A DNA stretch of 64,000 bases, taken from contig JBKHED010000005.1 in NCBI GenBank assembly GCA_046540995.1, forward strand, positions 32,052 through 96,051, written 5' to 3'. Below the pieces are notes generated by a model that searched no databases, had not been told where the DNA came from, and saw only the letters and a list, made by a program, of their open reading frames with translations. Shown piece by piece: positions 26,273-29,422 of this stretch. How positions within the stretch are numbered: the stretch's first letter is position 1; the number at the start of each line of letters is the position of its first letter. The position numbers and the translations under genes are program-made. The stretch comes from Spirochaetaceae bacterium (GTDB lineage: Bacteria > Spirochaetota > Spirochaetia > DSM-27196 > Alkalispirochaetaceae).

Positions 26273-26842
26273 ATGAGTCATCACCACCTACGTTGGAAGG
26301 AACGGCGACGAGAGCGGCTCTTGGACGCGGCGGTCTTTTCAGTGGACAAGAGCATTCAGGAGGGCCCCGAGGGGCGTTCGGCGGAGTACTTTCTCCTGAA
26401 CACCCCGGATTGGGGCAACGTGGTCGCCCTCACCACCGATGAGCAGGGGCGGGAGTGCTTCGTTATGGTCCGACAGTTCAGACACGGCAATATGAAGGTC
26501 TCCCTGGAGTTCCCCGGGGGCGTAATCGACCCTGGGGAGGATCCCAAGGAAGCCACCGCTCGCGAGCTTGCGGAGGAGACCGGCTATACTTCCGAGGAGT
26601 TCACCCTCATCGGGGAGATATACCCGAACCCCGCCTTTATGAACAACGTCTGCTACACCTACCTCGCTCGAGACCTTCGTCGCATACGGGACCAGAATCT
26701 CGATGAGAACGAGGTCATCGACGTGGAGCTCGTGCCGGTGGACTCCATTACCGTCGATCTACAGGGCTCCTTCTTTCACGCCATGATGGTGGTCGCCCTC
26801 CACTTCTATAACTGCTGGCGGGCGGATCACCCCACCCCCTGA
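26273..26842 (+). CDS. Nudix hydrolase (ADP-ribose pyrophosphatase-like)
   Basis: Nudix box GGVIDPGEDPKEATARELAEETGY. Confidence 0.85.
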   Translation: MSHHHLRWKERRRERLLDAAVFSVDKSIQEGPEGRSAEYFLLNTPDWGNVVALTTDEQGRECFVMVRQFRHGNMKVSLEFPGGVIDPGEDPKEATARELAEETGYTSEEFTLIGEIYPNPAFMNNVCYTYLARDLRRIRDQNLDENEVIDVELVPVDSITVDLQGSFFHAMMVVALHFYNCWRADHPTP

Positions 26843-26901
26843 GCAGAGAGGCGCCGACCGGAGGGCGCCACGCGCCCCCGGCTTGCAGATATGGCAAACG
26901 A

Positions 26902-26929
26902 AAACGGCCCACCGCTTGGTGGGCCGTTT
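26902..26929 (-). terminator. duplicated copy of the tRNA-Cys terminator hairpin (inside repeat copy 1)
   Basis: Stem AAACGGCCCACC / GGTGGGCCGTTT with a 4-nt loop. On the minus strand it is followed by TTTTCGTTT. Confidence 0.4.
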
Positions 26930-26996
26930 CTCAGTGAGCAGAGAGGCGCCGACCGGAGGGCGCCACGCGCCCCCGGCTTGCAGATATGGCAAACGA

Positions 26997-27024
26997 AAAC
27001 GGCCCACCGCTTGGTGGGCCGTTT
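26997..27024 (-). terminator. rho-independent terminator downstream of tRNA-Cys; possibly bidirectional for the Nudix gene
   Basis: 12-bp perfect stem and 4-nt loop. The T-rich tract on the minus strand lies 15 nt after the tRNA 3' end. Confidence 0.6.
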
Positions 27025-27038
27025 CTTAGTGAGCAGAG

Positions 27039-27111
27039 AGGCGCCGACCGGATTCGAACCGGTGAATGGAGGTTTTGCAGACCTCTCCCTTAGCCACTTG
27101 GGTACGGCGCC
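27039..27111 (-). tRNA. tRNA-Cys (anticodon GCA)
   Basis: Manual cloverleaf: acceptor GGCGCCG/CGGCGCC, anticodon stem GAGGT/ACCTC with loop CTGCAAA, T arm ACCGG-TTCGAAT-CCGGT, discriminator U. It is 73 nt and no CCA is encoded. Confidence 0.93.
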
Positions 27112-27191
27112 GTATGTGATGCAAGGTTACAAAAAAGCCGCGCCATTGTAAAGAGCGCGCCGCTGAAGGCGCGCCCGCGGGACGCGCCCCG

Positions 27192-28961
27192 CTATTCCAG
27201 CCTGGCCGCAACGGCCCGACGAAACCGCTCTTCGAAGCTCCTGATTAGGGAGATCCCGGAGCGCCAGAACTCCGGCGACTCGAGGTCGAAGCCGGCGCTT
27301 CTGGCCACCTCCTGCGCGGAGGCGGCGCCGGTAAGCTTGAGGAGCTCCCGGTACCTTCTGGGAAACCCCTTCGGATCCTCCAGATACTGCGCGTAGAGTC
27401 CCAGGCCGAAGAGCTGGCCGAAGGCGTAGGGAAAGTTGTAGAACCCGAGCTCCGGACGGTAGTAGTGACCCTTTACCGCCCACATGTACGGATGGCGGAG
27501 GTCCCGGTCCATTCCATCACCGTAGGTGCGCTCCTGGGCGTCGAGCATAAGCTCCTTGAGGCGCCCCGGGGAGACGAAGCCGCTCTCCCGCTCCGCGAAG
27601 AGCGACTTTTCGAAGTAGAATCGCGAGAGGATGTCCACGATCACCTGGGTGCTCTCCTGCAGAAAGTGCTCGAGAATCGGGAGGGGATTGTCCCCCTCCT
27701 CTTCGACCCGGGTGTAGAAGATGTGAGTCTCGCAGAAGATCGACGCCGTCTCCGCCAGCGTCATCGGGTACTCCCTGAGGAGCGCCGGCTCCTCCTTGAT
27801 CACCTCGAAGTGGTAGGCGTGGCCGAGCTCGTGGGCGAGAGTGGAGACGGCGGAGAAGCTCCCGTCGAAGTTCGCGAGAATCCGGCTCTCTCCGAAAGCG
27901 GGCAGAGAAGTGCAGTACGCGCCTCCCACCTTGCCTTGCCGTGGTTGGCCGTCAATCCACTCCTCGGTAAACGCCTTCTCTGCCAGCGCCGCGAGATCAG
28001 AGGAGAATCGTCCGAAGCGGTCGAGGATGAACGCCTTCGCTTCGTCCCAGCTCCAGGATTTCTCCTCACCTCCAACGGGGGCGAAGAGATCGAAAAAGGC
28101 GACGCGTTCGAGGCCGAGGAGTTTCGCCTTCTCCCGCAGGTAGCTTCTGAATAGCGGCAGAGACTCCTCCATAACGCCAATCATCGCGTCCAGGCCTTTC
28201 CGACTCAGTCGAGACTGCATGACCGCCCGCTCGAGATCGCTCCGGTGACCCCGCCGCTTGTTGATTGTCGCGGCGAACCCCTTTACTCCGTTTAGGGCGT
28301 GAGCGAGGGGTGTTTCCATGCTCTTCCAGAGCTTCAGCTCTTCCTGATAAGCGCGTTCACGAACCGCCCGGTCACGGTCGAAGGCGAGGGCCCGGAGTTC
28401 GGTAACGCTCTTTCGCTCGCCCCTCTCCCGATCCCAAAGAGTGGAGAGCTCCGAGGAAACGGACTCCTGGAGACGACTCCAGAGCTCTCCACCGGACCTA
28501 TTGAGGTCCGCCCCGAGGTTTTCCTCTTCAACCCCCATCTGATACCCGGCGAAGGTGATCTCCTCCTCGAGGATTTCGGCGTACGCTTCGAGCTCACCAC
28601 CGGAGTGCCAGAGCTTCCTGAGGGAGTCGGCCTCTCTTGCCAGGCGGCTCCGCAGCCGCACGCGACCATCCCGTAGCCCGACCATGAGTTCGTTGAGCTG
28701 GTCCAGCTCCTTGAGGGCTTGGCTCTCACCTGTGTCGGTGGAGTAGGTAGCATATGCAAAGGATTCGAGGGTCTCGGCGAGGGTGGTTGCGTCGTTTAGT
28801 CGTTCCAACGCGCGTTGAAGCCACGCCCCCTGGGAATCCACCGCTTCTCGGAGAGCGGTGATCTCCTCTCCGAGTGTCGAGATGGCGTTCCGATACCCTT
28901 CGGAATCGAAGCCGCGGTAGATGGTATCAAGTCTCCACCGCGGAGCGCCGGCTGCTCTCAT
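27192..28961 (-). CDS. pepF: oligoendopeptidase F family (M3B) metallopeptidase
   Basis: HELGHAYH zinc motif and M3B length. The ATG at 28961 shares one nt with the ndk stop (TAATG). The longest ORF starts at a GTG at 28973. Confidence 0.88.
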   Translation of the reverse strand: MRAAGAPRWRLDTIYRGFDSEGYRNAISTLGEEITALREAVDSQGAWLQRALERLNDATTLAETLESFAYATYSTDTGESQALKELDQLNELMVGLRDGRVRLRSRLAREADSLRKLWHSGGELEAYAEILEEEITFAGYQMGVEEENLGADLNRSGGELWSRLQESVSSELSTLWDRERGERKSVTELRALAFDRDRAVRERAYQEELKLWKSMETPLAHALNGVKGFAATINKRRGHRSDLERAVMQSRLSRKGLDAMIGVMEESLPLFRSYLREKAKLLGLERVAFFDLFAPVGGEEKSWSWDEAKAFILDRFGRFSSDLAALAEKAFTEEWIDGQPRQGKVGGAYCTSLPAFGESRILANFDGSFSAVSTLAHELGHAYHFEVIKEEPALLREYPMTLAETASIFCETHIFYTRVEEEGDNPLPILEHFLQESTQVIVDILSRFYFEKSLFAERESGFVSPGRLKELMLDAQERTYGDGMDRDLRHPYMWAVKGHYYRPELGFYNFPYAFGQLFGLGLYAQYLEDPKGFPRRYRELLKLTGAASAQEVARSAGFDLESPEFWRSGISLIRSFEERFRRAVAARLE

Positions 28962-29422
28962 TAGATAAACCACTCCTCATTCGGGTCCGTCCACTCGAGG
29001 ATCTCGTCCTCTTCGAACCAGAGGGAGATCTCTCGCTCCGCGCTCTCGGGGCTGTCTGAGGCGTGGATGATATTCTTCGTGGTTGCCGCGGCGAAATCTC
29101 CACGGAGCGTTCCCGGAACGGCTTGGTCTACCTTGGTAGCCCCGCAGAGAAGGCGAAGCATCGGAATGGCGTCCTCCCCGGCAACCACCATCGCGAGCAC
29201 CGGCGAGGAGGAGACGTAGGAAACGAGGTCCTCGAAAAAGGGTTTGCCCTGGTGTTCGGCGTAGTGTTCCTGAAGCAGTTTCTCCGAGGCCCTCATGAGC
29301 TTCATGCCCACAATTCTGAGCCCCTTTCGTTCCATTCGTGTAATGAGTTCTCCGACGATTCGACGCTGCAGAGCACCGGGTTTGAGCATTGCAAAGCTCT
29401 TCTGATATGCCACGTATTGCAC
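28961..29422 (-). CDS. ndk: nucleoside diphosphate kinase
   Basis: FAMLKPGALQRR, active-site NIIHASDS, and about 150 aa. Confidence 0.9.
   Translation of the reverse strand: MQYVAYQKSFAMLKPGALQRRIVGELITRMERKGLRIVGMKLMRASEKLLQEHYAEHQGKPFFEDLVSYVSSSPVLAMVVAGEDAIPMLRLLCGATKVDQAVPGTLRGDFAAATTKNIIHASDSPESAEREISLWFEEDEILEWTDPNEEWFI

Follow-up and report, generated by a model that had tools for sequence, protein, structure and literature searches.

Why is the 3′ end of a single tRNA gene copied, at a fixed interval, into the DNA directly behind that gene? The question is raised by a 64,000-nucleotide stretch of contig JBKHED010000005.1 from a Spirochaetaceae bacterium (the window), in which the gene for tRNA-Cys(GCA) is followed on its own strand by 95-bp tandem repeats that each end in the last 14 nt of that tRNA. 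An earlier sequence-only reading of this DNA had described the repeats and proposed that they are scars or landing sites of an integrating element, or the product of replication slippage. With modest confidence, we favor the view that they represent, at this locus, a family of tRNA-linked repeat units found in spirochaetes, which has a conserved layout and covarying helices and probably serves as a tRNA-trailer RNA module. That the units are transcribed, processed at the copied 3′ end and endowed with any regulatory role is what we infer from these features.

The array behind tRNA-Cys

Tandem Repeats Finder (TRF) reports a period of 95 bp at 26840-27052, with 2.2 tandem copies, 99% matches and a score of 419. 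Within this interval the 22-mer GAGCAGAGAGGCGCCGACCGGA occurs three times at a spacing of 95 bp, starting at 26841, 26936 and 27031, and shuffled sequence contains no match to it. Because tRNA-Cys(GCA) occupies 27039-27111 on the minus strand, the 22-mer can be read as 8 nt of trailer joined to the last 14 nt of the tRNA (T60-U73). With the trailer included, the block of identity between the end of tRNA-Cys and the end of a unit measures 23 nt, and 81 nt lie between successive copies of the tRNA tail. The parts of the array, in window positions, are the following.

27039..27111, minus strand: tRNA-Cys(GCA), 73 nt, with the discriminator U73 at 27039 and without an encoded CCA (ARAGORN; Rfam RF00005, 62.8 bits)
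26944..27038, minus strand: unit 1, tRNA-proximal, 95 nt (TRF and repeat search; the covariance model R1, introduced below, matches 26944-26998 with 56.9 bits)
26997..27024, both strands: terminator-type hairpin of unit 1, with 12-bp arms and the loop AAGC (inverted-repeat search; -24.7 kcal/mol)
26977..26989, minus strand: conserved single-stranded motif CCA-N4-TGCAAG of unit 1 (column frequencies in the family)
26952..26977, minus strand: hairpin H2 of unit 1, GCCGG-G-GGCGC GTG GCGCC-C-T-CCGGT (fold, -21.6 kcal/mol; family covariation)
26944..26957, minus strand: copy of tRNA-Cys nt 60-73, TCCGGTCGGCGCCT, at the end of unit 1 (sequence)
26849..26943, minus strand: unit 2, 95 nt, the same as unit 1 save for a C at 26932 in place of the T at 27027 (TRF, repeat search and model R1)
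26902..26929, both strands: terminator-type hairpin of unit 2, with 12-nt perfect arms and a 4-nt loop (inverted-repeat search)
26882..26894, minus strand: CCA-N4-TGCAAG motif of unit 2 (same family motif)
26857..26882, minus strand: H2 of unit 2 (fold)
26849..26862, minus strand: copy of tRNA-Cys nt 60-73 at the end of unit 2 (the original lies at 27039-27052)
26840..26848, minus strand: partial third unit, 9 nt, CTCTGCTCA (sequence)

The first base of unit 1 directly follows U73 of tRNA-Cys on the same strand. From there the unit runs through the trailer CTCTG, the terminator hairpin, CCA-N4-TGCAAG and H2 to the copy of tRNA nt 60-73, and the local order is thus tRNA, terminator, motif-H2-tail, terminator, motif-H2-tail. 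In unit 1 the base of H2 copies both strands of the T-stem of the tRNA, and an inner stem stands in place of the T-loop. The 12-bp hairpin is followed on the tRNA strand by UUUUCGUUUG; in unit 1 it is preceded by an A-tract and followed by a T-tract, which suggests that it can terminate transcription in both directions. A simple promoter and terminator scan of 26600-27400 gave no calls, even for the 12-bp hairpins, because part of the T-run falls within the stem, and the terminator assignment therefore rests on inspection. The hairpin sits where the other hairpin of the family, H1, would be, and the R1 alignment shows H1 deleted in the units of the window.

Within the 3.14-Mb draft genome the 95-bp repeat is confined to this locus, and tRNA-Cys is the only one of the 39 tRNA genes detected there whose tail is repeated downstream. 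Arrays of homologous units are present in the one-contig genome G003, where two units follow tRNA-Val(CAC), and are therefore not artefacts of assembly; like the independent metagenome contig L174, and like the C/T difference between the two copies in the window, they argue against an artefact at this locus. In its description of the array the sequence-only reading was accurate: it had recorded the 95-bp period, the threefold 22-mer, the single C/T difference between full copies, and a 12-bp-stem terminator hairpin with a second GC hairpin in each unit. A search of the rest of the genome and of related genomes, also proposed there, yielded a single locus in the former and homologous units in the latter.

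Units behind other spirochaete tRNA genes

Read in the orientation of the tRNA, a unit of the family consists of NUNUG, H1, CCA-N4-(U/G)GCAAG, H2, the 3′ strand of the acceptor stem and the discriminator base. Its usual length is 60-69 nt, with about 6 bp in H1 and 12 bp in H2; in the lowest 5 bp of H2 both T-stem strands of the neighbouring tRNA recur, and in place of the T-loop there is an inner stem of 6 bp with a loop of 3 nt. The unit of the window measures 95 nt instead because a terminator replaces H1 in this genus. Terminator-type units like those of the window also occur in genomes G044, G566, G590 and G551, and G518 mixes them with H1-type units. Every family member examined abuts a tRNA gene, and none was found away from tRNA genes. 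The tRNAs concerned are those for Cys, Val (TAC, CAC, GAC), Leu (GAG, TAA, CAA), Thr (GGT, TGT) and Pro (GGG, CGG), the Leu-CAA case being decayed. At all five kinds of tRNA the unit ends in T60-N73 of that very tRNA and takes the base of its H2 from that tRNA's T-stem. The neighbourhood of Nudix, tRNA-Cys and M3-peptidase genes is common across the family Alkalispirochaetaceae, and tandem units stand behind tRNA-Cys in several genomes of other families of the same order, each with the tRNA tail of its own genome; units of G032, for example, have CCCGT in the tail where others have CCGGT, matching their own tRNA-Cys. Identity between unit and tRNA extends over 14 nt in the window and 14-17 nt in other arrays, and relatives carry from one to at least eight copies per array (the latter in G040). 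G001, a genome of the same genus as that of the window, retains one decayed unit of the terminator type, behind a terminator.

R1, a covariance model built from 17 Cys-linked units of relatives, finds matches in 32 of 99 genomes and 15 of 26 genera of the order; elsewhere in the class Spirochaetia it matches another 13 genomes, which belong to other orders. A motif pattern gave matches in 11 of the 99 genomes of the order and none when reversed; when it was run over the whole contig collection, nearly all of the matches listed were chance singles in high-GC genomes, and three spirochaete ones were informative. A Cys-specific double-tail pattern had no match among 401 genomes of the phylum, a result that says little beyond the order, as the pattern is blind to the tails of other tRNAs and, with an allowed gap of 45-75 nt, misses the window array itself (85-nt gap). 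The reversed control of this pattern (TCCGCGGCTG, 45-75 nt, TCCGCGGCTG) matched 52 times in G125 and three times in G150, both of genus g64 in another family of the phylum, a hint that the genus has an abundant repeat of an unrelated kind.

The hairpins of the family covary. Among 103 distinct units fitted to the model, standard pairs occupy 92.0% of cells, compared with 67.4% after shuffling (0 of 500 shuffles reached as high a value) and 34-44% when the partner strand is slid, and both sides have changed in 14 of 18 pairs (467 cells). A1, an alignment of 17 units made with MAFFT only, gives a similar picture for H2 alone: 92.7% paired, against 80.5% shuffled and 27-51% slid, with changes on both sides in 6 of 12 pairs. 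The inner stems of H1 and H2 vary freely between genomes yet stay complementary, and compensated differences are seen even among adjacent units of single arrays (L174, G053, G040). At variable pairs G.T (29) is more frequent than A.C (9), and at two positions of H2 about 80% of units have G.T. Folding can therefore be assigned to the tRNA-sense strand, whether as RNA or as single-stranded DNA. Between the helices CCA-N4-UGCAAG is near-invariant; in 60 distinct units, C28 is conserved in 57 of 57, C36 in 56 of 58, A37 in 58 of 58, A38 in 57 of 58 and G39 in 58 of 59, and a non-Watson-Crick T in mid-helix is likewise near-invariant across the family. No Rfam family matches the units of the window or of four other arrays. 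As judged from these alignments, the structure of the family is clearly under selection.

This conclusion bears on an explanation in which the window array is a neutral by-product, created by recent slippage or unequal crossing-over of a module of tRNA tail plus terminator and having no role other than extra termination between Nudix and tRNA-Cys. The copies are indeed 99% identical, in this genome tRNA-Cys alone carries units, the bidirectional terminator in each copy should let little transcription reach H2, and G001 has a single degenerate unit behind its terminator. Drifting DNA would not, however, be expected to keep what the window units keep, namely a perfect 11-pair H2 helix with the conserved G.T of the family and an intact CCA-N4-TGCAAG motif. 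Structural selection on the family as a whole also weighs against neutrality, as does the fact that E. coli small RNAs of like build arise by terminator read-through. We think neutral origin an unlikely account of the array. Recent duplication by slippage, one of the possibilities raised in the sequence-only reading, or by unequal exchange is likely to be the proximate origin of the two near-identical copies, but it accounts for the last step only.

A different view of the same hairpins would be that the units are selfish or mobile DNA without genes, miniature hairpin elements that reach the DNA behind tRNA genes through template-switching in replication or the action of an enzyme encoded at another site, maybe via a single-stranded intermediate. 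The copy of the tRNA tail would be remade at each event, and the hairpins would be conserved for the sake of propagation rather than of an RNA. One core (H1, CCA-N4-TGCAAG, H2) does recur behind at least 11 tRNA isoacceptors with its ends re-matched to each, and its patchy distribution, in 32 of 99 genomes, would suit mobility, as would the identity of H1 (GCCTTCGTTGAGAAGGC) in Cys units of G040 and Leu units of G072. H2 is intact even where a terminator precedes it (the window, G044, G566), and the near-invariant T in mid-helix resembles the extrahelical bases of single-stranded DNA recombination sites such as attC and those of IS608. A partner enzyme, however, was not found. Y1 transposases of the IS200/RAYT type (PF01797), present in 32 of the 99 genomes of the order, overlap with unit-bearing genomes in 12 cases, against 10.3 expected, and the array-rich genomes G040, G067-G070 and G072 are without them; mobilisation of this type was therefore rejected. 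Nor does an integrase adjoin the array. Units are confined to tRNA genes, and where arrays stop there are partial units, variable in phase, and no clean element ends with target duplications. In the part that does not derive from the tRNA, pairwise identity is 0.62 between tRNA loci of one genome and 0.61 between families. Since identity within genomes is scarcely above that between families, there is no sign of recent spread between tRNA loci, a candidate that we rejected on this ground, and the divergence fits old, locus-resident elements. Kinship with integron attC sites was also rejected: the H2 base G-CCGG...CCGG-T is the T-stem of the tRNA and by inspection contains no AAC/GTT, and no search for intI was made. 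Taken together, these observations leave mobile DNA a rather improbable explanation.

Several contig ends and one insert were noticed beside such loci. In the genome of the window (G000), contigs C108 (7802-7874), C6 (66077-66147) and C23 (2-74) stop 0-2 nt from the 3′ ends of tRNA-Val-CAC, tRNA-Gly-CCC and tRNA-Thr-CGT, respectively. Unassembled arrays may lie at these breaks, since Val-CAC carries arrays in many relatives. In G002, of the same genus, contig C14 stops (31377) exactly at the 3′ end of tRNA-Cys and C279 starts (1) about 45 nt inside the 3′ end of Nudix, which is consistent with a repeat array that the assembly did not resolve. At L189 (G067:C9), L193 (G069:C246) and L223 (G069:C341), an insert of about 85 nt, GACGAAGCCGCGCAGCGCAATCGTCAG...GAGCCGGCCCAG, separates either tRNA-Val(TAC) from a unit or one unit from the next; two genomes have almost the same insert, which resembles a further small repeat aimed at the unit junction.

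Integration or co-transcription at the tRNA locus

The array of the window lies between two protein-coding genes.

26273..26842, plus strand: convergent Nudix hydrolase gene (open reading frame list; Pfam NUDIX, E = 1.7e-20)
27192..28973, minus strand: M3-family oligopeptidase gene, upstream of the tRNA on the same strand (Pfam Peptidase_M3)

The sequence-only reading had placed the array right after the Nudix stop codon. The two do abut, but the TGA (26840-26842) is the complement of part of the third, partial unit and forms the first 3 nt of the repeat, so that gene and array overlap. Stacked terminators between convergent Nudix and tRNA transcription had been seen correctly, with one hairpin in each unit, and unit 2 would be covered in antisense by the 3′ untranslated region of Nudix. 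Between the stop codon of the M3 peptidase gene and the tRNA, at 27112-27191 on the minus strand, there is a further terminator-like hairpin, GCCGCGC...GCGCGGC followed by TTTTTT, for which the scan gave no call; it overlaps a weak promoter-like site for the tRNA, TTTACA-17-TAACCT, which was seen by eye and is not relied on.

Integrases that act at tRNA genes typically leave duplicated tRNA 3′ ends, the 23-nt block of identity has the size of an attachment (att) core, and islands do enter tRNA genes in this order (G004, G070). The copies might then be attL/attR-type scars of repeated integration and excision, or a pad of multiple attB sites for an element that targets tRNA-Cys, as had been suggested from the sequence. 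What surrounds and separates the copies speaks otherwise. The neighbouring genes encode Nudix, the M3 peptidase, a MoxR-type ATPase and a hexapeptide-repeat transferase, and the observation that neither integrase nor cargo lies between or beside the copies holds for these neighbours. Just 81 nt separate the copies, and this sequence is the conserved, covarying structure common to units behind other tRNAs, at least five kinds in all. tRNA integrases cross over in the anticodon-loop and T-loop segments, and the copied block, T60-N73, contains neither. The matching attP that the integration proposal called for did not appear in phage, plasmid or viral collections: neither the repeat nor its 19-nt core has a match among 50,697 phage records, 72,556 plasmids or 2.9 million viral contigs, and the four motif matches in the viral contigs are not tRNA-linked.

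A true att duplication in the order provides a standard of comparison. In G004 an intact tRNA-Val(CAC) gene (L217, G004:C81:9723-9794) is followed 105 nt downstream by the gene for a 423-aa tyrosine integrase (Pfam Phage_integrase), while the displaced 3′ part of the tRNA, 45 nt long (about nt 28-72, from the anticodon arm), lies on another contig (L202, G004:C107:36990-37034) with a repeat unit attached. G070 resembles G004, with a truncated tRNA-Val(CAC) followed by units (L194, G070:C40:1456-1497). In G004 the integrase thus stands beside the restored gene and the unit has stayed with the displaced part; because it sits behind the old tRNA 3′ part, it is a chromosomal feature of the tRNA locus and not a product of integration. 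Integration is in our estimate a very improbable source of the copies and has already been largely refuted; its revival would turn on an element whose attP carries the core TCCGGTCGGCGCCTCTCTG.

We return to the tRNA-trailer RNA module. As we picture it, the array would be part of the tRNA-Cys transcription unit, and read-through of terminator 1 would allow transcription of unit 1 and onward. Each unit would fold on the tRNA-sense strand. Its end shares the T-stem, acceptor-strand, discriminator and trailer context of the tRNA, and the tRNA 3′-end machinery, in this CCA-less and RNase E-less genome presumably RNase Z and exonucleases, could set the 3′ end of the unit as well. The products would be small structured trailer RNAs in amounts proportional to tRNA transcription. 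Unequal recombination or slippage between the 23-nt direct repeats would alter the copy number and may have produced the two near-identical copies of the window.

The placement of terminators fits co-transcription: in H1-type arrays the tRNA runs into the first unit with no terminator in between, and clear intrinsic terminators follow several arrays (G045, G088, G020, G072). In the genome of the window other solitary tRNA genes are also directly trailed by terminators. None of its 39 detected tRNA genes encodes CCA, an RNase Z gene is present (G000 C93:2763-3674, 346 bits), and a search of the genome for an RNase E/G domain found none; maturation of tRNA 3′ ends should thus use a CCA-adding enzyme together with RNase Z. 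Should the copied tail act as a processing signal, it must be read by an enzyme other than RNase E/G.

A number of points weigh against a trailer RNA. The alignments behind the largest covariation counts were fitted to the model, and conserved hairpins with G.T pairs would also suit a single-stranded DNA intermediate. Co-transcription and processing are deduced, and a clean terminator stands right after the array in only 3-5 arrays. RNase Z requires an acceptor helix, and nothing conserved within the units could pair with the acceptor 3′ strand, which leaves the processing step hard to explain mechanistically; the palindromic GGCGCC of neighbouring units can pair, in Cys arrays only. In the window a strong terminator precedes H2 in each unit, and H2 would be made by read-through only. 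Finally, the decayed unit that is all G001 keeps may mean that the module is dispensable or decaying in this genus.

Two other RNA-based candidates were rejected. The first was a mimic of tRNA-Cys directed at cysteinyl-tRNA synthetase, with UGCAA as the Cys anticodon loop and U73 as an identity element; (U/G)GCAAG also occurs behind Val, Leu, Thr and Pro tRNAs. The second was a chain of overlapping tRNA-like cloverleaves in which GGCGCC supplies the 5′ acceptor strand of the next unit. RNAfold predicts such folds in the window, but they are impossible with the non-palindromic acceptor strands of Val, Leu, Thr and Pro tRNAs and so do not characterise the family.

Comparison with known systems

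Direct repeats of a tRNA 3′ end that flank non-tRNA DNA behind an intact tRNA gene are shared with att duplications and with integrase-less remnants resembling cis-mobilizable elements (CIMEs). In contrast to these, the window has no integrase, cargo or attP, the copy is too short and excludes the crossover loops, and the spacer covaries. The 3′ external transcribed spacer of leuZ (3′ETS-leuZ), a sponge in E. coli that PMC8144298 also cites, and the dicistronic tRNA-small nucleolar RNA genes of plants are examples of functional small RNAs that are made on a tRNA promoter and freed by tRNA nucleases; unlike the spirochaete units, they are single, unrepeated trailers without a copy of the tRNA 3′ end. 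Tandem short structured repeats are also known from ToxI, the antitoxin of a type III toxin-antitoxin system. A ToxI-type array was tried as an explanation and rejected, since no conserved toxin gene lies downstream and the downstream genes are Nudix, ThuA-like or glpK. Repetitive extragenic palindromes and bacterial interspersed mosaic elements (REP/BIME) are hairpin repeats at the 3′ ends of genes, conserved in structure more than in sequence; the spirochaete units, by contrast, are not dispersed and show no association with Y1/RAYT transposases.

The closest comparison is with the tRNA-linked repeats (TLRs) of E. coli, said to have been described by Egan and Landy in 1978 and by Rudd in 1999. 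E. coli K-12 has 22 TLRs at ten loci, one to five per locus, with 18-19 bp of end identity to the upstream tRNA or rRNA gene (Stenum et al. 2021, PMC8144298). Three of them, rrA, rrB and rrF, are each found between the two terminators that end one of three rrn operons, and arise when transcription continues past T1; they bind Hfq and CsrA in vitro, the other TLRs having no proposed role, and a 173-nt form of RrB has a mapped 3′ end 3 nt past the copied sequence, which the authors credit to RNase E (PMC8144298). At tyrT-tyrV, the locus of the RtT/rttR units, we find one 175-nt and three 178-nt units, each ending in the last 19 nt of tRNA-Tyr and containing an internal GGGGAAGG complementary to the copied tail.

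The two groups are alike in several respects. Both lie directly behind a tRNA gene (or, in E. coli, a 5S rRNA gene) on the same strand, the E. coli units in one to five tandem copies, and the array of the window shows the corresponding features: tRNA adjacency on the same strand, end identity and few tandem copies. In both, the end of the unit copies the upstream 3′ end from a point inside the T-loop (A58 in tyrT, T60 in the spirochaete units), and the copied tail is paired inside the unit, with GGGGAAGG in tyrT units and with G plus the 5′ strand of the T-stem in spirochaete units. The dual-terminator layout of rrA, rrB and rrF (rrnB T1-rrB-T2), which are made by read-through, is also that of the array in the window.

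They differ in that no homology is detectable. The Rfam model RtT (RF00391) scores 133-138 bits on four E. coli units and has no match in the window, even at E<=10, or in four other spirochaete arrays, and R1 has no match in E. coli. E. coli units measure 100-178 nt and spirochaete units 60-95 nt; the latter share 14 nt with the tRNA, without CCA, which the genes do not encode. RNase E, the enzyme proposed for E. coli, was not found in the genome of the window, and in E. coli transcription together with the upstream gene and processing into discrete RNAs have been shown for rrA, rrB, rrF and RtT, whereas the spirochaete units are known from sequence.

TLRs have been known in E. coli since 1978, with roles proposed only for the three rRNA-linked ones, and in the open-access literature matched by a full-text phrase search they have been described only from enterobacteria. 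The spirochaete family spans the whole class Spirochaetia and at least five tRNA specificities and shows no detectable sequence homology to the E. coli units. The same build without detectable homology, distributed class-wide and with its structure under selection, argues for a recurrent, selected solution rather than an enterobacterial oddity or the debris of integration. For annotation, this means that short tandem copies of a tRNA tail are not automatically att sites, and the small size of the unit makes it a handy model for the role of the copied 3′ end.

We speculate further, and consider it a long shot, that tRNA-trailing RNAs form a widespread convergent class in which a pseudo-T-arm and a free acceptor 3′ strand are functional, with the spirochaete units, at about 65 nt and with two covarying helices, as its smallest and clearest case. 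The unit might be a conditional substrate on which, for example, RNase Z acts once a free complementary 5′ acceptor strand pairs with it, an idea that can be compared with the heptamer guide RNAs for tRNase Z. If so, small RNAs would be freed in step with tRNA transcription or tRNA damage, and E. coli-type TLRs would acquire a general function. As far as the sequences allow comparison, the spirochaete family resembles the TLRs of E. coli in build without detectable homology and may be regarded as their spirochaete counterpart.

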